This document shows, piece by piece, positions 5,445-64,000 of a stretch of 64,000 nucleotides of DNA. This stretch comes from a virus (Duplodnaviria > Heunggongvirae > Uroviricota > Caudoviricetes): the IMG/VR virus record IMGVR_UViG_2861079508_000001. One strand, 5' to 3'. Under the pieces are notes generated by a model. It ran no database searches. It was not told the origin of the DNA and was given only the letters and a program-made list of their open reading frames with translations. Both the position numbers and the translations under genes were made by a program. How positions within the stretch are numbered: position 1 is the stretch's first letter; each line of letters starts with the position of its first letter.

Positions 5445-6256
5445 GTCTCATCTCCCTTGAGCAAGTCTCTGTGACGCAAGTGATGCGTCGTATGTTTCTG
5501 ATACATTCCGCCGTAATAAGCACGACAACTTAGGCGGTCGATCTGGTGATGAAGAATCATTCCATCGCCGATATAAACCGCGCAGTGGTCAGGCATTTTC
5601 CCGTATTGGATAAAGAATACGTCCCCACGTTGAGGCTCTGTTCCGGGCGCAAGACGCACCAATCCCTCGTTACGGTAGTTCTGATCGAGAATGTCGTTAT
5701 CGCCGGTGTACCACGATGGAATATGCAGGTGTGCGTTCGGGTTTAGTTCGACGTTAAACTCACGCTTCAAATAGTCCCGACACAACATCCAGCAATCAAA
5801 TACGCCAAATACATACGGTCTGCCCAGGTATGGCATTTCGAAACCATCAGGTGTGATCACATTCATCTCGCTAAAATGGAAAGGGGCATCTCCCTCAACA
5901 TTCTTGCGAATAGCCAGAATCATCCACGGAACTTCCGTCGCTTCGCAGCCTGCACGATCGGCATCAGATGCTTCTGCTGATTCATCAGTATGTGAATGCC
6001 AGATTGCGATAACATCACCCGCATCCTCTGCCGCCATAATGTCGTCAACGTGCATTACAAAAGTGTTCTGCGGGTTCTCCGAAACATTCCGCGCTTCCAT
6101 AAAGCGATATTTGTCGCCATTAGTTCTAACCAGAAAGCCACACGCTTCATTAGGGTAGCGATTTATGGCGCAGAGATAGATTTGCTGCATAACGTCAGAG
6201 CCAAGCTCAGGGATTGCTTTATTACCCATACCGCGTAGCTCCAATAAATCCGCCAA
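5432..6256 (-). CDS. tail tip assembly protein (lambda gpK-like; JAB/MPN plus NlpC/P60 motifs)
   Basis: HSHTDESAEASD metalloprotease-like motif and DCWMLCRDY NlpC/P60-like Cys motif; synteny. Confidence 0.7.
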   Translation of the reverse strand: MADLLELRGMGNKAIPELGSDVMQQIYLCAINRYPNEACGFLVRTNGDKYRFMEARNVSENPQNTFVMHVDDIMAAEDAGDVIAIWHSHTDESAEASDADRAGCEATEVPWMILAIRKNVEGDAPFHFSEMNVITPDGFEMPYLGRPYVFGVFDCWMLCRDYLKREFNVELNPNAHLHIPSWYTGDNDILDQNYRNEGLVRLAPGTEPQRGDVFFIQYGKMPDHCAVYIGDGMILHHQIDRLSCRAYYGGMYQKHTTHHLRHRDLLKGDETCLS

Positions 6257-6953
6257 AATGGATCACACCGTCGGCAAAATAATTCCGACGCGCATTACAG
6301 GCGTCATAACGTTTTGTGCAGTAATCCGCACCAGACATAGACGTCTGCTGGTTATTTTTGTCGAAATATGGACCGGTATAGCCGCATTCTGGCCCTCGGT
6401 ATTTCCACGGGCAGGTGTTTTTAATGATCTGACGATACGGCAGTTGCACCCCCATCAAATCGAACACACTGGACAATTCAAACTCGACAACCTGATGAGT
6501 TTCGAGAGTTTTCTGTTCGATAAACCACATTTCATCCGGGAAATGTTGGTTTGGATCTGCTGTTGGGTTGCCGTCTTTAAAATTAACGGCATCGAGGAAG
6601 CGAGCCAGCGTCATCTTGCGAATAATGCGGCAGCCAACAAGATCGTCGTTCGCCTGAACTTCCGCAGAGACGGTTCCGGCAAAGTTCGATACCTGAATTT
6701 TTGGACGTGGCAACGTTCCCTGGCCCGTTTTGTCAAAGCCTGATGCTTTTATTGGCCACGGCTCGTATGTCACTCCTTGCCAGACGACCGGTTGCATCAG
6801 TTCGTTTGTTCCGGCGTGGAAGAATAGCTTCCCCCCTGAAGTTGTGTTCGACATATCCAGTACGAACAACTCAATGAGTGCAGAGGGAGATAAGCTCTGA
6901 ATATCAGCTTTAATTCCCATTGTTTCATCCTTGAAATAAGTAGGCGCTAACAT
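6222..6953 (-). CDS. minor tail protein (lambda gpL-like)
   Basis: C-terminal Cys motif CPWKYRGPECGYTG typical of gpL family; synteny. Confidence 0.7.
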   Translation of the reverse strand: MLAPTYFKDETMGIKADIQSLSPSALIELFVLDMSNTTSGGKLFFHAGTNELMQPVVWQGVTYEPWPIKASGFDKTGQGTLPRPKIQVSNFAGTVSAEVQANDDLVGCRIIRKMTLARFLDAVNFKDGNPTADPNQHFPDEMWFIEQKTLETHQVVEFELSSVFDLMGVQLPYRQIIKNTCPWKYRGPECGYTGPYFDKNNQQTSMSGADYCTKRYDACNARRNYFADGVIHFGGFIGATRYG

Positions 6954-7380: not shown

Positions 7381-10300
7381 TTAGTTACGTTGAGTGTTTG
7401 GGTTGAGAGATCCGCCAGGGCGTTTCTCTTGAGCGATAGTCTCAAGCGCGATTGCTTTCATCCGTTGAGCGGCATTGTTCCATATGCTTTCTGTATCGCC
7501 GGATTCAGTTGTGCTACCGTCACTATGGACGTTGATCTCAATTGATACCGGAGAAAGAACATTTCCTCCTCCACTCATACCATCGGTACTGAGCGTTACA
7601 GGGATTGTTCGACCATCAGGCAATGGAACATACGCCTCATTCATATCGCCTTCCCCAAACAACGCCAATTGAGGTGAGTTGGCGATACCGCCTTTCTGGT
7701 ATGCCCGGAGCGGGATCACGCCGTCTTTTCCGAATATGCCACCATTTGCAAACTTCGGAATTGCAGGAATACCATTCGTGCCATCGGCAGCAGAACTGGT
7801 CAGATTGTTGAACCCGGAAGTTGAGCCAGAAGAACCGGACATCAATCCATCGAATCCACCACCAGCCCATACTGAAACCAAACCAGATGCAACTGTCGCG
7901 CCGAAATTCAACCACTTATTACCAGAGCCGGAAGCATTAGCTCCAAGCATTGCAAACGCGGCAGACAGAGCGCCGGTAACAGAGCTGAGGTTCTGCATCG
8001 AGAAGATGGAGTCCTTCACTGCTTTTGTCTCAGCATCTTTGGCTTCGGTGCTATCAAATAGCCCCGATACCCAGCTACCAATCGCATTTGTTGCTGTGCC
8101 AATTGCGCTGGTGGTCTGCTGTGTTGTTTGCCCCAATCCAGTTACCGAACTGGACGTCTCCTTCGTGGCTTCTCCTACCGACTTGTCGCCATTAACAGTG
8201 TTGCCCATTCGTACACCTTGATTGGCAACGGCAGAAGCAACTCCAGTGAGCAAATTGCCACTCTGTGAACTACCAGCTGCGGTGGTTCCCATCCCCAACA
8301 TGTTCATTAGAGGCAGCGTGATTTGCGACTTCACGACCATATTGGTGATATCTTTCAAAATGGACTGAGATAGGCTGGAGAAGCTCATCTTCCCGTTAAT
8401 AACGAAATCAGTCAGGACATCAGTTAAGCCACTAAACAAATCAGTCCAGGTGCTTTCGATCTGCTCTGCCAAGTTTTCGTATTCCAGTGCCAACTTCTGC
8501 GTCGCAGTCCCCGTCTCTTTAATAAGCGCGGTATTGCCAGCAGCAATCAGTTGATTGATTTTCTTTGTATAAAGCGCCACAACTTTAGGATCAGACGCCT
8601 TATCACGAAGTTCTATCAACGCTTTGAGATTGCGGTTGTAGGTGTCTTCGAAATCGGCAACTTTCTCTTCGCGAGACGGCGTATAGCCAGCACTAATAAT
8701 GGAATCCGCCTCCGGTGCCCAAGTGGAGATCATCTGCTCAACATTGCGGCGATTAAACATCTCACGATATTCAGGTGTCGCATTTTTGAGGTCTTCAAGA
8801 CGTTTTTTCGCCTTGTCGATCATCTCTTGAGTGATGAACTCGTTAGGAACCGCATTAGCCAAATCTGTCAGCGATTTCGTTGTATCGCGAAGAGACTGAT
8901 CAAACGATACCGTAGCCTTAGAGCTTTCACCCATTTGCCCCATAAGCTGATCGGCTTTGTCCAGAGCCTTCTGGTATCCGGCTGCCAGTTTCTGTTGCGC
9001 TGCCTGTTCCTTCTTGGCCGCACGCTGCGAGGCGTTAGCTGATCGTTGGGCTGCTTTCTCGGCAGCTGCTGCATCCTGTTCACGAGCTTTAGTTAGTGCA
9101 GCAATGGCTGCGGCACGCTCTTCATCGCTCATTTTCTCCAGAGAGCTGGCGCTGGATGCTTTCTGCAAATTAAGCTGCGTCTTGAGTTGTTTAGGCCCAA
9201 TAATCGGCTTACCTTCGAAGTCCATCATCGGAGTGCCGTCAGGCAAAGTACGCTGATAAGTCGCAGAATTCATCTGGTTTCGCATATATTGCGCCAACGC
9301 CTTCTGAGCAGCTTTATCAGTTGTACCTAACCCAAGAACAGTCCCCTGGTTTGACATTACGCCCTTACCAGTTTTGGCCGCGTTATCTCTCTCGAACTCT
9401 GCCTGAGTAAGTTCCTGAGCAACGGCTTCCAAATGCTCCTGATAACCACGAATACTGCCTTGCAGTTTCTGGATTTGCTCGGTATTGCCATCCTTTTTGG
9501 CTTTTTCAAGCTGATCATTAAGAGTCGCGATTTGCTTCTCGGTCGCATTCTTACGAGAAGAAAGTGAATCAACCAGTTTTTGCGCAGGCTCCAGATAGCT
9601 TTTGTTTACCGTTTCACGTAACGGTGCCAATAGCTTGTTCTTTTCGTCATCTGAAAGTGAACCGTCATCATTGATTTTCTGGATCTTATCCAGAGCCTCC
9701 TGCCGGGCTTTCACGAATGTTGCCGCGAAAATCTGGTTTTCCGCTCGAATTTTCTCAATCTGAGATTCGGCAGCCTCTTTAGCCAAACGCTTTGCTACAG
9801 CGCCGTCACCAAGAGCTATCGTGCCGGTTATCTTTTGATACTCTTCCTGATTTTTTTTCAGGCGTGCTTCGATGTCAGCCTTCGACTCTTTGTGAGTAAT
9901 AACACCGGCAGAGTTAGATACGTAATTAACACCCTCACCAGTTTTTAATGCTCGTTGATCAGCAAGAATCTGCTTTTCGAGCTTTTCTGCGCGGTCGGCC
10001 ATTTGTGCACGTTTGGCCGCCGTCATCGCCTCTGGTATTTTCCTAATCTCGTCAACGACCTTTGAAGTTTCGCTGCGGAGCATGGTCATGTACGTGATTA
10101 GGCCAGCAACAGCTACAGTGGCAACTGTAAATGCTGCCCCTATAGGGTTTGCTGCAATGAACGCCGTTAATCCAGCAAAAGCGCCTTTAAGCCCCGTAAT
10201 CGCCCCACGGATGGCGAAAATAAGAGAGGGGATCGGAGCCAGCCCCATACGTGCCGCACGATTGAATCGGGTTACTGCTGTAGCGCCGAGGTTAAATGGA

Positions 10301-11119
10301 GTCTGTATGGCGGTCGCCATCGTGGCAAAGGTGCTAACCATCTGGCTGCCTGCGCCAACTACCCCCATGATCCCTGCTCGCATCAGTTTGAACGCAACCA
10401 TCGCGGCCACGACCTTACCGAGATTAATTACCAGCTCTTGGTTCTTTGCTAACCATTGAGCAAGCTGACGCAACCCATCAATTGCCGTCGTTAACCCCGA
10501 GCCTAAAGAATTGGCAAACGAAATCCCTTCGGCGCTATTCATGATTGAAGCCAGTTCTTTCATCCCCTTCGATAGAGAATCCAGATATCCGGCCTGACCA
10601 ACCCGATCAGCAAATAACGTGAATGACGTCTGAAGTTGCGCCAGCGCACCTGTGTAGGTTTGCATCATGTCTTTCGCTGCGTTCTCATTCTCCGCACGCA
10701 GACCAACAAACATCAGAGACAACGCCTGTTTTGCCTCAACCGTACCGCTGGCAACGGCTTTAGTCAGTTCCCCCATAGTGATGCCTGCGGCGTCTGCCAT
10801 TGCCTGCATCGCGTTAGGAACGGCTTCACCTAATTGCTGACGTAGCTCTTCCATTGACACAACGCCCTTACCGGACATCTGCTGAACGGCCACAGCCGCA
10901 CGTTTCAACAGCTCACTATCACCACCAAAACGAGCAACGGAGTCCACCAGCGCCTTCAGAGAACCATCGGTTGGATCTAAGCCAGCAGAACGAAACTTCA
11001 CGAAGGAATCTGTTAACGCCTGCATCGCGAACGGCGCATTTTGCGCCATGTCTACGATGTACTTCATATCATCAGCGGCAGCCTGGCCAGGGTTGGACTT
11101 CTCCTTATTCAACCCTCGA
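7381..11119 (-). pseudogene. tape measure protein, C-terminal ~1245 codons, 5' part severed by IS insertion
   Basis: Long Ala/Gln/Lys-rich helical ORF ending with Gly-rich C-terminal region; ORF start abuts the IS left end; continues in the N-terminal fragment at 12430-13286. Confidence 0.8.
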
Positions 11120-11173: not shown

Positions 11174-11500
11174 ATGACTAAAAATACTCGTTTTTCCCCC
11201 GAAGTCCGTCAGAGGGCGATTCGTATGGTTCTGGAAAGTCAGGGCGAATATGACTCACAGTGGGCGGCAATTTGTTCCATTGCCCCAAAGATTGGCTGTA
11301 CACCGGAGACTCTGCGTGTCTGGGTACGCCAGCATGAGCGGGATACCGGAGGCGGTGATGGCGGGCTCACCACCGCTGAACGTCAGCGTCTGAAAGAGCT
11401 GGAACGTGAAAATCGTGAACTGCGCCGCAGTAACGATATCCTTCGCCAGGCTTCCGCTTATTTTGCGAAGGCGGAGTTCGACCGCCTCTGGAAAAAATGA
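11174..11500 (+). CDS. IS3-family transposase OrfA (HTH)
   Basis: 108 aa protein [26 protein letters not shown]... recognised as IS629-type OrfA. Confidence 0.9.
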
Positions 11501-12387
11501 TGCCACTGCTGGATAAGCTGCGTGAGCAGTACGGGGTCGGACCGCTATGCAGCGAACTGCATATTGCCCCGTCAACGTATTACCACTGTCAGCAACAGCG
11601 ACATCATCCGGATAAACGCAGTGCCCGTGCGCAGCGCGATGACTGGCTGAAGAAAGAGATACAGCGCGTATACGATGAAAATCATCAGGTGTACGGTGTG
11701 CGTAAAGTCTGGCGTCAGTTGTTACGGGAAGGTATCAGAGTGGCCAGATGCACTGTGGCACGTCTCATGGCGGTTATGGGACTTGCCGGTGTTCTCCGGG
11801 GTAAAAAGGTCCGTACGACCATCAGCCGGAAAGCCGTTGCCGCAGGCGACCGCGTAAACCGTCAGTTCGTGGCAGAACGACCTGACCAGCTGTGGGTGGC
11901 TGATTTTACTTACGTCAGCACATGGCGGGGCTTCGTCTATGTGGCGTTCATCATTGATGTGTTTGCCGGATACATCGTGGGGTGGCGGGTCTCATCGTCT
12001 ATGGAAACGACATTCGTGCTGGATGCTCTGGAGCAGGCGTTATGGGCCCGTCAACCGTCCGGCACAGTCCATCACAGTGATAAAGGTTCTCAGTATGTAT
12101 CGCTGGCCTACACACAGCGGCTTAAGGAAGCCGGATTACTGGCATCAACAGGAAGTACTGGTGACTCGTATGACAACGCGATGGCGGAGAGCATCAATGG
12201 CCTTTACAAAGCGGAGGTAATACACCGTAAGAGCTGGAAAAACCGGACAGAAGTGGAGCTGGCCACACTCACGTGGGTGGACTGGTATAACAATCGACGA
12301 TTGCTGGAAAGGCTGGGCCATATCCCACCGGCAGAAGCAGAAAAAGCTTATTATGCTTCCATCGGAAACGATGATCTGGCAGCCTGA
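11497..12387 (+). CDS. IS3-family transposase OrfB (DDE integrase domain)
   Basis: 296 aa, DDE-type catalytic domain, overlaps orfA stop. Confidence 0.9.
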
Positions 12388-12429
12388 GTTCACAGATAAA
12401 ACACTCTCCAGGAAACCCGGGGCGGTTCA

Positions 12430-13286
12430 CGAAGCATCACCCGCATACGTTCCATTTCGGCCGCAGCTTCAACAATAGGCTTCTGCCACCCAAACATGAT
12501 GTCAGTAACCGTTCTGGCTGCATCTCCGATCTCGCCAAGCAGGAAAATGTTGCCACGAAGGCCAGAGAACATACCTCCTTCGTTACTTTTACCGCTATGG
12601 CCAGAAGCGCCGCTACGCCGCCCGCTACCACCATCGCCACTTCCAGATGTACGAACGCGTACCGGCTTGCTAATCAGTTGCTGACGTCCGATAACTTCGT
12701 CCATCTGCTCACGAACCTTTTTCAGTCCCTCGGCAGCCTGACTCGTTGTGACACCCCAATTACTGAGTCGCTTCGTCGTGGTATTAAGGCGCGTATTCAT
12801 GCCACTCACGGACGCAGAGGCTTCTTTGACCTCCGTACCAAAGCGGCTTGCGCTTTTGCTTGCATAGGTCGCCCAATCAGAGAAATCATTTAGCTCTGAT
12901 TGCACTTTACGTAATGACGCGGTGAGTTTATCTACTGAAGAAGTTGTCGTATCGACGCGCTCAATCAGGGCTTTAAGACCAGAATTGAGGCTGGTGATGT
13001 TGCCACGCATTTTACGCGTAGCATCTGAAGCAAGCTCAAAACCGGCAGCTACATCCTGTAGTTTATCTGCTGTAGAATCGAGCTTGCTTTCCAGAACGCC
13101 AATGATACGGGCGACCGAACCCAAAGAGCGTTCAAAGGTTTGGATTTTTTGAGCAGGCTTTGTTACCTGCTCACCAAATCGAGTAAGCAGTTTCCCCGCA
13201 CGATCGATTGACGCTGTAAACTGTTTGTCTTCCAGCGACAGGATAAACTCTACGTTTTGTGACATTCCCTTGTCATCCTCTGCCAA
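12430..13286 (-). pseudogene. tape measure protein, N-terminal ~285 codons, truncated by IS insertion
   Basis: ORF reads through into the IS right end and terminates there; frame is consistent with the C-terminal fragment once the IS and one CGA copy are removed. Confidence 0.75.
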
Positions 13287-24167: not shown

Positions 24168-25058
24168 TTATGCCGGTAAAGCAATTTCTAACGGTTTATC
24201 CAAAGGTTGTTTGTCGAATGCCAGCAGTGGCAGCGTGTCAGGCAGTCGACGACCAAAGTCAGGGTTTCGATACACCCCATACAACGGAGACGTAAAGCTC
24301 AGGTTGTGAATGTCCTTGAGCAACTTCACAATGCAGGCCTCGTCCACCAGACTGTCGGCAATGTCCTGAATCGTCGTGCCACGATTCCGCCCAGCTTTTG
24401 CCAGGGAACTGTTCTTGTGGTAGTCCGCCACCAGATCACGCAGTGCACGGCGACGACGAGACTCGCTCATTGCGAACAACTCTTTGACGATCGCCTCGTT
24501 ATCACCCGGGTCGGAACGGAAATGGCGCTGGAATACACGCAGTGCACTTTCATAGCTCTTCGGTCGCTCAGGGCGGATGAACTTAAACCCTGCTTTCATG
24601 GCGAAGGGATTGTATTTGCTCATCGAGGACTGGATCTCAATGATTGGCCGGTCATGCATCCTGCTAACCAGGTTAATCATTCGATAAGAGACGCCTACGC
24701 CACGATACTGAGTATCCACAACTGAGCGACTGATCACCGCAAAGTTGTTATTCACGTACCGACCCCAGTACTGGTTAGCCACGGTGGTATTAGTGGTTGG
24801 TTTCAACTTAGGAAACATGCGGTGGCGAGGTGCCAACAGTAGTTTCGGGTAAGCCATAACCACGACGCCCACCAGACGGTCATCAAGTTCGCAGCGATAG
24901 TAAGTTGGCGCGAAAGGTTTGCCGTCTGTTTTGTAGTGAAGCGACTTAAGAGCGTGCCAGTCCTCTACAGTTCCCTTTGTAACAGTCATTCGCTCCAGAA
25001 AGTCCAGATGACGCGGAAACTCTTCAGGGCGGTAGCGTTTAATGATGATGTCCGTCAT
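24168..25058 (-). CDS. GNAT-like acetyltransferase-fold protein with C-terminal extension
   Basis: YRGVGVSYRMI and NPFAMKAGFKFI resemble GNAT motifs A and B. Confidence 0.45.
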   Translation of the reverse strand: MTDIIIKRYRPEEFPRHLDFLERMTVTKGTVEDWHALKSLHYKTDGKPFAPTYYRCELDDRLVGVVVMAYPKLLLAPRHRMFPKLKPTTNTTVANQYWGRYVNNNFAVISRSVVDTQYRGVGVSYRMINLVSRMHDRPIIEIQSSMSKYNPFAMKAGFKFIRPERPKSYESALRVFQRHFRSDPGDNEAIVKELFAMSESRRRRALRDLVADYHKNSSLAKAGRNRGTTIQDIADSLVDEACIVKLLKDIHNLSFTSPLYGVYRNPDFGRRLPDTLPLLAFDKQPLDKPLEIALPA

Positions 25059-25720
25059 GAATGGACCTCATCGTGACTACCATTGTGATATTCCACCTTC
25101 ACGCGTTCTTTGTAGTGCTTGGTGATCTGCATATCCGGGCGCAGCGCGTTCTTCAGGTCTTCGTGAGTCGTCGCCACCATTACCGTCGCACCAACCTTTC
25201 GAGCGGCACGCTGGAGGTTAGACGCCACAACCTGAGCGGTTACACGGTCGAGAACAGCGCCGAACTCGTCAGCAGCCCACACTTTAGCGCCTGACTCAAT
25301 CAGTTTGGCAATCTTGAGACGATATTTCTGGCCGTCTGACATTTCAGAAGGCTTGCGAACAAACAGATATGCATCGTTCAGACCAGCCATAGATAACAAC
25401 CCAAGCGCATCACTGGTCGTTTTGCCCAACTGATCGATGACGTTAACCTCATTATCGAAGGTAAAATCATCGATGGAGGCTACAGACAGCCCTTCATCCT
25501 TCATCTGTCGTTGCAACTCGCGCAGCACAACGGATTTGCCGGAACCGGATTGGCCGGTGATGTACACCACATCGCCCTGCTTCACTTCCAGCTCCAGATT
25601 GTCGTAAAGCGTCCACTCTTTTTCGTCCAGGCCAAGCCCGAACGACTCAGCGATTTCCAACGTGCGCGTGGTTTTATTTACGCGTGTCTGAAACGATACG
25701 TTGATGATGTATTTGCTCAT
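25055..25720 (-). CDS. stand-alone ABC-type ATPase
   Basis: Walker A GQSGSGKS, signature MSDGQKYRL, Walker B VWAADEFG, H-loop TTHED. Confidence 0.65.
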   Translation of the reverse strand: MSKYIINVSFQTRVNKTTRTLEIAESFGLGLDEKEWTLYDNLELEVKQGDVVYITGQSGSGKSVVLRELQRQMKDEGLSVASIDDFTFDNEVNVIDQLGKTTSDALGLLSMAGLNDAYLFVRKPSEMSDGQKYRLKIAKLIESGAKVWAADEFGAVLDRVTAQVVASNLQRAARKVGATVMVATTHEDLKNALRPDMQITKHYKERVKVEYHNGSHDEVHS

Positions 25721-26385
25721 GCAGCCATCTCCCCGGAAGAGATCTTCTCCGCATATGCCACAAATGCGTCTACCCCGCTTTCTCCCGTCATTTCTTCCAT
25801 GTGGGCAAGCAAATCACCAACAACAATGGCAGAGCCAGCAGGGAGCGTTTTAAAGCCCAATACGTCGACAACACGTACTTCTTCCGCTGCAACTTCACGA
25901 CTGATCTCGGTGTGTTCATCCTTCTGTCGTTTAGTTTCTTCGCCAAGATCGATAACTAGCGAGTCGGTGTCCATTTCTTCTGTCATACTGCCAACGAGAA
26001 CATTCAACTCACGCTCTTCAAAGCCGAAAACCTCGATATCGTCCAGAACAAGCGACTCAAGCTCTTTCTGTAGCTTAATTGCATCGTAATCAATGCTGGC
26101 AAGTCGGTTATCTTCAAGGCGCTTCGCACGAACCTCGTCATCACTGAGATCATCGCGAACAATAACCGGTACGCGCTCAAGTCCAGCAAAAATTGCAGCC
26201 TCACGGCGGCCGTGGCCAGTAATAATTACGTCGTTCTTATCGACCGTAATTGGCTGGTCAAATCCGCGCTTTTTAATGGCTGCGGCTAGATCTCGGATCT
26301 GCTGTTCATCATGCTTTTTGGCATTCATCTCATAGGGAATAAGATCTGCCGGGTCGCGATATACGATTTCAAACTTTTTGGTCAT
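25717..26385 (-). CDS. ParB-like N-terminal domain protein 1
   Basis: ParB/Srx motif ITGHGRREAA; start at ATG with AAGGAG; stop overlaps next gene. Confidence 0.6.
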   Translation of the reverse strand: MTKKFEIVYRDPADLIPYEMNAKKHDEQQIRDLAAAIKKRGFDQPITVDKNDVIITGHGRREAAIFAGLERVPVIVRDDLSDDEVRAKRLEDNRLASIDYDAIKLQKELESLVLDDIEVFGFEERELNVLVGSMTEEMDTDSLVIDLGEETKRQKDEHTEISREVAAEEVRVVDVLGFKTLPAGSAIVVGDLLAHMEEMTGESGVDAFVAYAEKISSGEMAA

Positions 26386-27083
26386 TACATACGCTCCTTG
26401 TAGTAGTCGACCAGCCACACCAGAGCCTCACCAGCGTTCTCCATTTCATTACCGGTGTTAATAGCCTGCTCTTTGATGATGTTTTTTATGGTTTCTGCAA
26501 CACGATCTGACGCATCGAAAGTTACTTTGAAGCGCATGGTCTGATGTTCCGCACCCACACGTTCGGTTTTCTCTCGTTTGTCGGTATCGACAGGCTCATC
26601 ACTACCACGAGACAACGCCTCCAGTGCTTCAAGGTCGATTGCCGCCTCTTTTGCTAAAACCATCGAGATTTCGTCGTCATACGGGGCGATTTCAGACAGT
26701 TGATAGTCAAGTTCTGACTGAATTTCTTCAATGAAGCGTTGCAATGCGATTTGGTCGTCTTCACCGTATCGCTCGTTGTCCACCAGTGACATCTGTTTAG
26801 CTACGACATCGCTAATTTTGCCCACAGAAAGCACCGGAACCGTTGAAATTCCTTGCTCAATAGCAGCACGCCAGCGATGTTCGCCGCCGAGGATTTCAAA
26901 AAATCCATCTTCAAGTTCACGAGCCAAAATTGGCTTAAAAAAGCCCAATTTTTCGATAGAACCTTTCAGTTTTTCAAAATTCTGCGCACCAACCGAATTG
27001 GTGTTCCAGGTATTCGGGCGAAGGTTGGCAACATCAACCTGCAAAATCGTGATTTTTACATCCATTTTATTGCTACAATACAC
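26385..27083 (-). CDS. ParB-like N-terminal domain protein 2
   Basis: ParB/Srx motif LGGEHRWRAA. Confidence 0.6.
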   Translation of the reverse strand: MYCSNKMDVKITILQVDVANLRPNTWNTNSVGAQNFEKLKGSIEKLGFFKPILARELEDGFFEILGGEHRWRAAIEQGISTVPVLSVGKISDVVAKQMSLVDNERYGEDDQIALQRFIEEIQSELDYQLSEIAPYDDEISMVLAKEAAIDLEALEALSRGSDEPVDTDKREKTERVGAEHQTMRFKVTFDASDRVAETIKNIIKEQAINTGNEMENAGEALVWLVDYYKERM

Positions 27084-27147: not shown

Positions 27148-28707
27148 ATGACTGTTCGGATTGTATCTAACGCAGTAAATGCGCTTATTTCTGGCGCAGA
27201 TGACAAGGTAAAGCAACTGGTGCAGCAAATGTTGAGCTACGAAGTCGAGACTGGCGACTGGAAGGGCACAAGCACGATGTTCAACTGGAGTAAAAACTCG
27301 TTCCCTGCTGGCTTTGCCAAGCCTGTAGCGGCGAACTTGAACAAGGCGGGCATCAAATGTGTTCATATCCGCAAAGACAAAGCCCCGGCGCTTGGTAAAC
27401 CAAATCCGGCGGTTAACCCATTCCCATACAATCCTGATTATGCGTATCAGGATCAGACTGTGGAAACACTGGTTCGAGAGGGAATGATGATTGCGCAGAT
27501 CGCTACTGGTGGCGGGAAATCTAACGTTGCCTGCAAAGCAGCTGCACGTATCGGTCGAATGACATTATTTTTAACAACCCGCTCTGTTCTGATGTTTCAA
27601 ATGGCCGAAAACTTCCAGAGATCCATCGACTACCGCGCCGAAAATGGCGAACCGTGGTTAAAAGACCAAAAGGTTGGAGTCATTGGCTCGGGTGAGTTCC
27701 AGGTATCACGACATATCAACGTCGCTACAGTTCAAACTCTTGCAAGTTTCCTCGAAGAACCACCACGCGATGCAACACCAGATAAGAAAAGCTACCACCT
27801 CAAACGTCGGGAGTTGGTGAAACGCTTCCTTTCAAGTGTCTCTCTTCTTATTCTGGAAGAGGCGCATGAGTCTTCAGGCTCAAATTTCTATGACATCGCC
27901 AGATTATGTGTGAACGCAGACTATCGTCTGGCGCTTACAGCCACGCCGTTCATGAAGGATTCGACGGAAGCCAACATGCGCCTGATGGCGGTGGCCGGGC
28001 GAATTGAAATTAAAGTCACAGAAAAGTACCTGATTGATCGAGGCATTCTGGCAAAGCCGTACTTCCTTTATCATAAAGTTGCCTACAAGCCAGACGAGGC
28101 CAGAATCAAGGCCGAACTTGCCAACAAACACCTCAATTTTAGAGTTGGTATGAGCACCGCCTACCAAAAGGCTTATCAGTTGGGGATCGTGTATAATTTG
28201 GGACGTAACGAGGCCATTGTTCGCGAAGCATTGCTCTATAAGCAACATTCTCTCAATTGTATGACTCTGGTTCGTCTTAAACGCCACGGGCAAATCCTGA
28301 TGGAAATGATGAAAGAGTCCGGCCTTAGAGTTGACTTCATCTATGGGGAATCTAACCAGGCGACAAGGCAAGCAAAGCTGAACAGTTTAGCGTCTGGAGA
28401 AATAGATGTTTTAATAGGCTCGACTATTCTGGATGTCGGTGTTGATGTGCCAAGCGTTGGTGCGGTCATTCTTGCTGGTGGTGGGAAAGCAGAAGTTGAA
28501 ATGAGGCAGCGTGTCGGTCGTGGCTTACGAGCCAAAAAAAATCAGGCAAACGTGTGTTTTATCACTGATTTCATTGACATTAGCAACAAATACCTGTTGT
28601 CTCACTCTTATGAGCGAAAACACATCATCGACACCACACCTGGCTTTGCAGAAGGTGTATTGCCTATTGATGGAGCATTCGATTTTGGAGTTCTGAAACG
28701 AGATTAG
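27148..28707 (+). CDS. SF2 DEAH-box helicase
   Basis: Walker A TGGGKS, DEAH-like LEEAHE, motif III LTATP, motif VI QRVGRGLR. Confidence 0.75.
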   Translation: MTVRIVSNAVNALISGADDKVKQLVQQMLSYEVETGDWKGTSTMFNWSKNSFPAGFAKPVAANLNKAGIKCVHIRKDKAPALGKPNPAVNPFPYNPDYAYQDQTVETLVREGMMIAQIATGGGKSNVACKAAARIGRMTLFLTTRSVLMFQMAENFQRSIDYRAENGEPWLKDQKVGVIGSGEFQVSRHINVATVQTLASFLEEPPRDATPDKKSYHLKRRELVKRFLSSVSLLILEEAHESSGSNFYDIARLCVNADYRLALTATPFMKDSTEANMRLMAVAGRIEIKVTEKYLIDRGILAKPYFLYHKVAYKPDEARIKAELANKHLNFRVGMSTAYQKAYQLGIVYNLGRNEAIVREALLYKQHSLNCMTLVRLKRHGQILMEMMKESGLRVDFIYGESNQATRQAKLNSLASGEIDVLIGSTILDVGVDVPSVGAVILAGGGKAEVEMRQRVGRGLRAKKNQANVCFITDFIDISNKYLLSHSYERKHIIDTTPGFAEGVLPIDGAFDFGVLKRD

Positions 28708-48052: not shown

Positions 48053-48646
48053 CTAAGCAGCCTTCTTTGATGGTCTTTTTTTCCTGATCACATTCGCAGG
48101 ATCATACCCTCCCAGACTTTTCATGACGTCCAAAGGGATCTTGCTTATAGAGTGCCCAGCGTCCTGACAGAATCCTCGAAAAACAACGAGCATACTGCCA
48201 CCTGGGTTGATGTTTACTTCTACCTGACCCAGATTTACGTCAGGCTCGACAAACGCTACGCGGCCACCAGACAGAATAATCGTCTCATTCGCACACTCTG
48301 TTGCACGCTCATACCACTTTGTATCTAGGGATTGAGGAATTAGCATCACTGTTGTAACTCCGCGAGCCTGCTCACGTATAGCCGCATCAATCCAGGGGTA
48401 GATTTTGGAGTAGGGTGGATTGAGGAAGGCAATTGTACCTGGCTGTCCCCATTCAGATTTCAAAGCATCACGCTCAACGCCTATGAAATTAGGCAGCTTT
48501 GCATTGTCCTTGTTGCAGGCAACGTCAACATCAAATGTCACTCCAAGATAACGTTGAATGGCAGAAAACAGCCAGTCAGGTGTTCTCCAGAGGTCACGAA
48601 GAGAGTTGTCACGCTTTCGCTGTTTGATTTTTTCGGCTGCAATCAT
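48053..48646 (-). CDS. dam: phage Dam-type N6-adenine DNA methyltransferase
   Basis: Small MTase with NPPYS catalytic motif. Confidence 0.8.
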   Translation of the reverse strand: MIAAEKIKQRKRDNSLRDLWRTPDWLFSAIQRYLGVTFDVDVACNKDNAKLPNFIGVERDALKSEWGQPGTIAFLNPPYSKIYPWIDAAIREQARGVTTVMLIPQSLDTKWYERATECANETIILSGGRVAFVEPDVNLGQVEVNINPGGSMLVVFRGFCQDAGHSISKIPLDVMKSLGGYDPANVIRKKRPSKKAA

Positions 48647-50845: not shown

Positions 50846-51490
50846 CTAATGAACGGTCACTCGGCCACAGAACCGGTTTTCTATCTTTTCTACAGCGTTA
50901 TCTAGCATTCTCATCACTGATCGGGCTCTTGCTTCAACCGTGCGATATCGGTTGGAAACGACGAAGGTTTGCAGATCTCCCCTTTGCGGATGCAGGTGAA
51001 TTTTTGTCAGTTCCCCGCACATCAACGCATCAATACGAGCGACATACAGACGGTCTAATGATGCTCGTTGTGATCGCAAGTAATCTCGCTCTGAGAGAGC
51101 GACTCCCGGGCGTAAGCCAGCAATGGCGTTAAAGTTTGAAATAGCAGTTTTGTGGCAAAACTTTTCGATATCGAGGGCTAACTCAATACACCGATCTTCA
51201 TTTGTATGGCCGACCAAATCCAACGTGTAGGCCATAACATCAGCAGGTGTGCGATCGATAACAAAGCCTTCAACACCACGCGTAAGTAGCTCTATATGCT
51301 TTGCTATTTCCATTTGAATCTGAAGCCGCTCATATAGAGGCATAGAATCACCTACTCGAACACCGAGGCGGCTCATCAAACTTCCGACACCAGCATCCAC
51401 GTAAGGGATTCCGTAATGTTTGTCGATATATTTAGCCAGGGTTGTTTTCCCACTGCCCTGAGCACCAGTGATCCCAATCCGGTAATCCAT
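50846..51490 (-). CDS. P-loop nucleotide kinase (dNMP kinase-like)
   Basis: Walker A GAQGSGKTT; context among nucleotide-metabolism genes. Confidence 0.5.
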   Translation of the reverse strand: MDYRIGITGAQGSGKTTLAKYIDKHYGIPYVDAGVGSLMSRLGVRVGDSMPLYERLQIQMEIAKHIELLTRGVEGFVIDRTPADVMAYTLDLVGHTNEDRCIELALDIEKFCHKTAISNFNAIAGLRPGVALSERDYLRSQRASLDRLYVARIDALMCGELTKIHLHPQRGDLQTFVVSNRYRTVEARARSVMRMLDNAVEKIENRFCGRVTVH

Positions 51491-51966
51491 TACGACCTTC
51501 TGTATACGATCTGCGAAAAGCCAGGCTCTTCCTCGCTGGCTCGTTGGGTATAAGCTGTTTCAACAGGCACAAAGCCTAAGTTACGCATCATGCTTGCCGG
51601 GAAGAATGCATCGGCGTTTGGTACATCAATGCCGATGTGGGAGAGCCAAATCTCTTCAACATGCGGCATGAATAGCGAGTAAATTTGTTCCCCGCCAATC
51701 ACCCACACAGGCTCTGGTAATCGCAACACATCATCCACACCAGCAGGGTAGAATCCATTTGGTACAAAGCCATGAGAGCGCGTCAAAACGAGGTTATGAC
51801 GCTCTGGAAGAGGGCGTTTGAGACTTTCCATCGTTTTACGCCCCATAACGACAGTGGCGTTTTTGGTGAGTCTCTTAAATAGCTTCAGATCGGTAGAACA
51901 ACGCCAGGGGAGTTCATTCGCTATGCCGATCTCATAGTTACGGCCAACAGCAGCGATCATCTTCAT
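51490..51966 (-). CDS. frd: dihydrofolate reductase
   Basis: DHFR family pattern (ELPWR, VVMGRKT, VWVIGG). Confidence 0.8.
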   Translation of the reverse strand: MKMIAAVGRNYEIGIANELPWRCSTDLKLFKRLTKNATVVMGRKTMESLKRPLPERHNLVLTRSHGFVPNGFYPAGVDDVLRLPEPVWVIGGEQIYSLFMPHVEEIWLSHIGIDVPNADAFFPASMMRNLGFVPVETAYTQRASEEEPGFSQIVYRRS

Positions 51967-63679: not shown

Positions 63680-63776
63680 ATGTCATTTTTCTGTGATTGT
63701 TAGCCGAGGCAACGATAACCCACCAGGTGCGCCGAAGGTAGTAAATGCCTGTTTTAATTATTCACATATCCACAGG

Positions 63777-63833
63777 ATAGATCCTAATAAAGAGATCCAT
63801 AGATAGATCCTTATATAGATCAAATAAGATCCC
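63777..63833. repeat. five (T/G)AGATC(C/A) heptamers at about 11-12 bp spacing (GATC cluster)
   Basis: Direct repeats read from sequence. Confidence 0.6.
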
Positions 63834-63879
63834 CGATCGCTGTAAGCCGCGCCACGACTGGTCTGAAGTCATGTTCATG

Positions 63880-63980
63880 TATGCTGTCAGCGGTAATTGA
63901 TAGTCTGTCAGCGGTTCACCGTATGCTGCCAACTGTTTTTGGTATTCTGTCAGCGGCAAATCAAGTATGCTGTCAGCGGT
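63880..63980. repeat. four to five TGCTGTCAGCGG-like iterons at about 20-bp spacing
   Basis: Direct repeats read from sequence at the window end. Confidence 0.6.
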
Positions 63981-64000
63981 TGAATGACAAAGGTGTCCAC

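Follow-up and report, generated by a model that had tools for sequence, protein, structure and literature searches.

A P1 oriR-like origin at the window end of an SSU5-supergroup phage-plasmid, very probably its plasmid-maintenance replicon

Anatomy of the origin region

The window, by which we mean the whole stretch of 64,000 nucleotides analysed here, ends in a compact succession of sequence elements. Two DnaA boxes come first on the left; next is an A+T-rich array of five heptamers that contain GATC, then a G+C-rich spacer in which a sixth GATC lies, and finally five iterons (Table 1). The two DnaA boxes overlap by one base and each has a single mismatch to TTATCCACA; in alignment they fall on the site annotated as binding DnaA in the P1/P7 oriR, and they are kept across 13 related origins. 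An earlier note on this DNA, made from the letters alone, had pointed to the repeats as a possible origin. The repeats are real and the origin reading has held, but the DnaA boxes, the G+C-rich stretch and the RepA initiator discussed below had all escaped it.

Table 1. Coordinates of the features discussed (window positions, unless a locus is named)
Feature	Coordinates	Strand	Basis or remark
Two tandem DnaA boxes	63758..63774	+	motif scan; TTATTCACA (63758-63766), ATATCCACA (63766-63774)
Five GATC heptamers, A+T-rich (30% GC)	63778..63833	.	candidate unwinding region and Dam/SeqA target
Individual heptamers	63778; 63792; 63804; 63816; 63826		TAGATCC; GAGATCC; TAGATCC; TAGATCA; AAGATCC, in that order
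G+C-rich spacer (64% GC), CGATCGCTGTAAGCCGCGCCACGACTGGTCTGA, with sixth GATC	63834..63866	.	composition and alignment
Iteron 1, TATGCTGTCAGCGGT	63880..63894	+	motif scan; putative RepA-binding site
Iteron 2, TAGTCTGTCAGCGGT	63901..63915	+	motif scan; candidate RepA-binding site
Iteron 3, TATGCTGCCAACTGT	63922..63936	+	variant copy; stays variant in Klebsiella homologue
Iteron 4, TATTCTGTCAGCGGC	63943..63957	+	motif scan; candidate RepA-binding site
Iteron 5, TATGCTGTCAGCGGT	63966..63980	+	motif scan; candidate RepA-binding site
First of tandem TGTCCACA pair straddling repA ATG	63993..64000 (pair, L001 4994-5009)	+	tentative
Dam-family N6-adenine methyltransferase	48053..48646	-	Pfam PF05869, E 2.9e-38
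Two ParB_N proteins	25717-26418; 26385-27083	-	domain match
Tandem origin cores, SSU5	L004 2500-2745; 2850-3150
Tandem origin cores, Cyrano	L015 2600-2840; 2990-3240

The GATC tetramers lie at 63780, 63794, 63806, 63818, 63828 and 63835, with spacings of 14, 12, 12, 10 and 7, and the last of them (in CGATCG, 63835-63838) falls outside the heptamers, where it opens the G+C spacer. No 60-bp stretch of the window holds more than the six GATC found here: any 60-bp stretch of the 64 kb lying wholly outside the cluster holds at most three, and the stretches with 4, 5 or 6 GATC (22, 21 and 5 window positions respectively) all fall on this cluster. By a Poisson estimate, about 0.02 clusters of this kind would be expected in the whole 64 kb, and six GATC were reached in none of 200 shuffles, the maximum being five (2 of the 200). 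The earlier note had described five (T/G)AGATC(C/A) heptamers; four of these are exact, the fifth starts with A, and the sixth GATC must be added to them. Compared with P1, the heptamers align column for column with Dam methylation sites 2-5 and an AGGTCC pseudo-site. The spacer that follows them differs hardly at all from TGATCGTTGCAGGCCGCGCCACGTCTGG of P1/P7, GCCGCGCCACG inside it being identical to P1, and is also kept in the origins of Klebsiella, Kosakonia, Pantoea and SJ46.

To the right of the spacer lie five direct iterons at intervals of about two turns of the helix, spaced by 21, 21, 21 and 23 bp and with zero to three mismatches to TATGCTGTCAGCGGT. The four to five iterons of the earlier note are thus five in number, at a spacing of 21-23 bp rather than the 20 bp it had given. 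Over the whole window the motif is matched seven times at up to three mismatches, against 1.28 expected, and the two matches outside the array are isolated three-mismatch sites (17592 and 43496). A short perfect palindrome, GCTG-T-CAGC, lies within every iteron, whose 16-nt site is otherwise asymmetric; the iterons of P1 are unlike this. Between 63599 and 64099, a scan for a consensus sigma-70 promoter and for terminators detected none in or near the iterons, and tRNA and Rfam scans returned nothing at the origin.

Beyond the last iteron stands the first copy of a tandem TGTCCACA pair, each copy with two mismatches to the DnaA box. The Klebsiella homologue reads GTATCCACA-TGTCCACA here, GTATCCACA having one mismatch, and P1 has DnaA boxes at the equivalent place, between the last iteron and repA. 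The pair may therefore represent right-hand DnaA boxes as in P1, in which case DnaA would bind on the translation start of repA.

Where does the element continue? Over its last kilobase the window matches Escherichia phage CMS-2020a (CP054387.1) at 99.8-100% identity, and more than 100 plasmids from E. coli and Shigella, about 105-115 kb in size, match it equally well. In CP054387.1 and in many of the plasmid records the match terminates at the final base of the record, which corresponds to window base 64000, while RepA maps to bases 1-1092 of CP054387.1. Thus the record has been rotated so as to open with the ATG of repA; the window cuts the element there, its base 64000 directly preceding the start codon. 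This record is circular and that of an SSU5-like phage-plasmid; the window makes up its final 64 kb, and the element has its place in the SSU5 supergroup of phage-plasmids (PMC7969092; PMC8085198). The earlier note had suspected that the element might run past the end of the stretch, and extending it rightwards in an identical but unrotated plasmid, NZ_CP080257.1 (locus L001), confirms this: the sequence continues into an ORF of 364 codons (L001 5002-6096), the repA gene, whose ATG lies 21 nt past the last iteron, and then into 12 more iterons (L001 6097-6628, in two clusters, 6097-6213 and 6375-6628). All 17 iterons have one orientation, where 0.22 would be expected by chance, and their consensus is (G/A)TATGCTGTCAGCGGT. 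By analogy with P1, the 12 downstream copies would constitute an incA-like copy-control locus.

The initiator gene and the role of the iterons

Over 76% of its length the 364-aa initiator shares 43.5% identity with the RepA of P1/P7 (E 2e-64); its identity to the RepA of SSU5 and Cyrano is 48%, and to initiators of Klebsiella phage-plasmids 85-87%. It matches Pfam Rep3_N at 37.5 bits, above the gathering cut-off of 22.4, as well as phrog_775. An NCBIfam scan of RepA gave no match, and PDB sequence searches, both with RepA alone and with a nine-member profile, gave no meaningful one. A RepA homologue of the P1 type, belonging to the Rep_3/RepE class, thus starts right after the window, which together with the DNA homology to the P1/P7 oriR bears out the comparison with P1 oriR that the earlier note had drawn.

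The position of the start codon matters for the reading of the iterons themselves. In RefSeq/PGAP the initiator, WP_001348683.1, has 404 residues and begins at an ATG inside iteron 1 (window 63881; L001 4882-6096), so that the iteron array is translated. One could therefore suppose that the region from 63881 on encodes the N-terminal 40 residues of a 404-aa RepB and that its periodicity is that of a peptide repeat. The frame is indeed open from this ATG into repA, in E. coli and Klebsiella alike, and PGAP uses the start in many records. However, an iteron that contains no stop codon and recurs with a period of 21 bp, i.e. 7 codons, leaves the frame open by chance. Other annotators, and the rotation of the records, use the downstream ATG (MSTK...), and homology to the RepA of P1, P7 and SSU5 starts only at about residue 30 of the 364-aa form. 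Moreover, E. coli and Klebsiella have kept the 15-nt iteron cores, the odd third one among them, but not the intervening spacers. Cores kept with spacers scrambled are the signature of an array of protein-binding sites, a constraint at the level of DNA and not of codons. Past the stop codon, non-coding DNA holds 12 further copies of the motif, and in P1 the iterons, which contain the repA promoter, lie upstream of the gene. We consider it very unlikely that the array is coding sequence; the annotated 404-aa start appears to be a systematic RefSeq start-codon error, and the ATG immediately after window base 64000, giving 364 residues, is favoured.

A second question is whether the iterons serve partition rather than initiation, as a centromere (parS-like site) for a phage ParB_N protein. 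The earlier note had kept this possibility beside the origin, and the two ParB-like proteins to which it referred do carry ParB_N domains. No classical P1-type parAB operon is annotated beside repA in this lineage, and the palindromic core of the iterons would also suit a centromere. Yet the ParB_N genes lie some 37 kb away, beside packaging genes, with no good or convincing iteron copy near them. The iterons are direct repeats of one orientation that bracket repA, like the incC and incA repeats of P1, which bind RepA according to GenBank; those of the window occupy the very position of the P1 incC iterons. Among relatives with a common backbone, moreover, the iteron sequence co-varies with the type of Rep. 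Neither a palindromic parS nor P1-type boxA/boxB motifs around an IHF site were found, the only palindrome being the 4+4 core of the iteron. This part of the earlier proposal is not sustained, and we regard a centromere here as extremely improbable. The ParB_N genes themselves belong to a group of three adjacent genes on the minus strand (25055-27083), the third encoding an ATPase of ABC type rather than ParA type; the group lies downstream of the terminase-portal block and is divergent from a helicase gene (27148-28707).

One may also ask whether the site serves the lytic cycle, as an origin or a packaging (pac) site, instead of plasmid maintenance. The phage has genes of its own for DnaE, a primase, a DnaB-like helicase and Dam, and the pac site of P1 is likewise regulated by GATC clusters. 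Architecture and sequence, however, match oriR and not the pac or oriL of P1, the same core is found in conjugative plasmids that are not phages (Rts1 and plasmids of Kosakonia and Serratia), and the terminase genes are about 40 kb away. We give a lytic or packaging role only a very small chance. The 214-aa neighbour was also considered as an origin factor and dropped: it has no Pfam or NCBIfam match, only phrog_2105, of unknown function.

The reading that we prefer, and hold with high confidence, is that the repeat region is a theta-type plasmid-prophage origin, dependent on RepA and DnaA and controlled by Dam and SeqA, where protein binding, methylation dependence and copy control are predicted by analogy. 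Window positions 63758-64000 would then very probably be the origin-proximal half of a plasmid-prophage replicon of an SSU5-supergroup phage-plasmid, orthologous by sequence to oriR/incC of P1.

Relatives of the origin and exchange of its Rep-iteron cassette

The anatomy of the origin, its homology and its conservation are direct observations. A blastn search with window positions 63740-64000 (261 bp) finds the annotated oriR of P7 (E 2e-14) and of P1 (E 3e-13) at 78% identity. The P1/P7 features under the match, taken from the curated GenBank records AF234172 and AF503408, are 'DnaA', 'Dam methylation site 1-5', 'incC' and 'origin of plasmid replication oriR'. P1 and P7 (IncY) have in common with our element the order of parts (DnaA boxes, GATC heptamers, G+C stretch, five iterons, repA, downstream iterons) and a core DNA similarity of 78% over about 120 bp. 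In the pairwise alignment the P1 DnaA boxes TTATCCACATTATCCAC stand against TTATTCACA-TATCCACA here and the P1 G+C stretch GATCCCTGATCGTTGCAGGCCGCGCCACGTCTGG against GATCCCCGATCGCTGTAAGCCGCGCCACGACTGG, and the heptamers pair one for one, one of those in P1 being AGGTCC where AGATCC stands here. P1 therefore counts five GATC, whereas here there are six, with a GATC in all five heptamers. The iteron spacing is 21, 21, 21 and 22 in P1 against 21, 21, 21 and 23.

The differences from P1 are equally clear. The P1 iteron, GATGTGTGCTGGAGGGA, is unrelated to (G/A)TATGCTGTCAGCGGT, and we therefore expect a different incompatibility specificity. Downstream of repA there are 12 iterons in two clusters, compared with the nine of incA in P1; RepA has 364 residues, with a Lys-rich extension at the N-terminus and another extension at the C-terminus, compared with 286; and no parAB follows the replicon, unlike in P1.

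Close relatives are the Klebsiella replicons of the pKPHS1 type ('IncpKPHS1', for example phage ST13-OXA48phi12.3), a sister lineage in another host genus, with the same iteron motif, five-iteron spacing and core but diverged spacers. Their DNA identity is about 80% over the whole 261 bp and that of RepA is 85-87%. For the IncpKPHS1 replicon only four iterons were reported downstream of repA, together with the lack of a known RepA domain; the upstream origin core goes undescribed there (PMC6735626). Rts1 (IncT) and other RepFIB-like replicons carry the same core of DnaA boxes, AGATCC heptamers and GATCCCCG upstream of an initiator of the RepB/RepA family. They are, however, conjugative plasmids and not phages, their iterons differ, and their Rep proteins are 38-52% identical (44% for Rts1). 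The oriC of E. coli likewise combines DnaA boxes with clustered GATC in an unwinding region, and its GATC cluster is under Dam/SeqA control (PMC5043065), but it lacks a plasmid initiator and iterons, and its sequence is not homologous to the element, in which DnaA would be auxiliary.

By the earlier note, a lack of conservation of the repeats in related phages would tell against its reading; they are in fact conserved. The core aligns across 13 origins, namely those of this element, ST13-OXA48phi12.3, SSU5 (two copies), Y. pestis pMT1, P1, P7, SJ46, Rts1 and plasmids of Kosakonia, Serratia, Pantoea and S. bongori, and in this alignment the AGATCC columns and GATCCCCGATCG are nearly invariant. 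Wherever genes are annotated, a RepA/RepB-family gene lies downstream of the core, and the iterons vary with the Rep protein while the core stays. The replicon is thus one more example of the DnaA- and Dam-linked iteron origins of the P1/RepFIB/Rts1 class, which has long been known. Among PLSDB plasmids 1679 match the 261 bp, and the 473 that do so over at least 80% of it have the same iteron family (E. coli, Shigella and Klebsiella). The origin is present in 117 of 5426 complete E. coli genomes, always on a plasmid and with a median of one copy. In our literature search we found neither experimental work on this replicon nor a paper joining the names of the SSU5 group with a DnaA box or oriR.

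How does the iteron type change while the core persists? SSU5, pHCM2, pMT1 and Cyrano have the same backbone (the 214-aa neighbour gene and SbcCD-like genes) and the same core of DnaA boxes and GATC heptamers. Identity to phage Cyrano (L015) is 90% across the 214-aa gene and the origin core, reaching as far as about 63867; to SSU5 (L004) it is 78%, as far as about 63839. Past the GATCG, SSU5 and Cyrano differ from our element: the G+C spacer is another one, the iterons are of an unrelated ATCCACTATAGAGAG type, and RepA has fallen to the 48% identity given above. Judging from these alignments, the Rep-iteron cassette has been swapped, with a junction inside the conserved core (window about 63839-63879), and the core acts as a recombination boundary between replicon specificities.

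In SSU5, Cyrano and pMT1 (L005), the origin core is present twice in tandem, and each copy leads into five iterons at 21-bp intervals. GATC heptamers are intact in the distal core, while those of the repA-proximal core have decayed to AGAACC and AGACCC. As the repA-proximal core has lost several GATCs in these relatives, Dam dependence may not be universal in the wider family.

A model of replication control and its significance

How would such an origin work? In P1 the origin requires Dam methylation and is under the control of SeqA. By homology with P1, RepA monomers would occupy the five in-phase iterons, while host DnaA would bind the left boxes and possibly also the weak TGTCCACA pair at the repA ATG. 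Together RepA and DnaA would open the A+T-rich heptamer region, onto which the host replisome would load for theta replication. Initiation would need full Dam methylation of the heptamer GATCs, and after replication the hemimethylated GATCs would be bound by SeqA, blocking immediate re-initiation; this Dam control is proposed from the analogy with P1. RepA bound to the origin iterons would in turn repress the repA promoter. Such autoregulation is suggested purely by P1, whose repA promoter is annotated inside the iterons. Finally, the downstream iterons would limit copy number in two ways, by titrating RepA and by pairing with the origin (handcuffing).

The Dam methylase that the earlier note had identified in the phage is confirmed as such by its Pfam domain (Table 1), and P1 also encodes its own Dam, besides having a separate lytic origin. 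The phage enzyme is a possible trans-acting modifier of the origin GATCs, although host Dam would suffice. As all heptamers have retained GATC in this lineage and the phage brings its own Dam, it is conceivable, though we think it a long shot, that upon induction the phage Dam re-methylates the origin so fast that SeqA sequestration is abolished. If this were true, a once-per-cycle plasmid origin would become an over-initiating origin that feeds the lytic cycle, i.e. a methylation-based switch from plasmid to lytic replication.

Some observations on the rest of the phage-plasmid and its siblings should be recorded here. An insertion sequence of the IS3 family lies at window 11174-12387 (+), with overlapping orfA and orfB and an Rfam ALIL frameshift pseudoknot (11455-11571, 120 bits), between the large minus-strand ORFs 7381-11112 and 12390-13286; it probably interrupts a gene of the tail-fibre region. 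A 158-aa ORF at 51490-51966 (-) sits where a DfrA51 dihydrofolate reductase is annotated in the near-identical pEcFELIX526.1 and is, by position, a candidate for the same gene. The annotation of that plasmid groups dfrA51 with further genes of nucleotide metabolism in one block, among them thymidylate synthase and nrdAB (neighbours as far as about 58 kb), and dfrA51 has recently been shown to give trimethoprim resistance (PMC12217456). The sibling phage-plasmid NZ_CP101923.1 (L013 20348-23639; L014 24093-26486) carries host-like metG and apbC, and has an ISEcp1-blaCTX-M-15 unit inserted in a DNA ligase gene.

The assignment of the origin raises no new mechanistic question, and its value is mainly one of annotation: the plasmid-maintenance origin is placed, and the determinants of incompatibility and copy control are predicted for the lineage. 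This lineage is present in about 2% of complete E. coli genomes, and its members can carry CTX-M-15 and a gene of the dfrA51 type. More generally, the exchange of Rep-iteron cassettes among close phage-plasmids bears both on how these plasmids are typed and on which of them can reside together in one cell.
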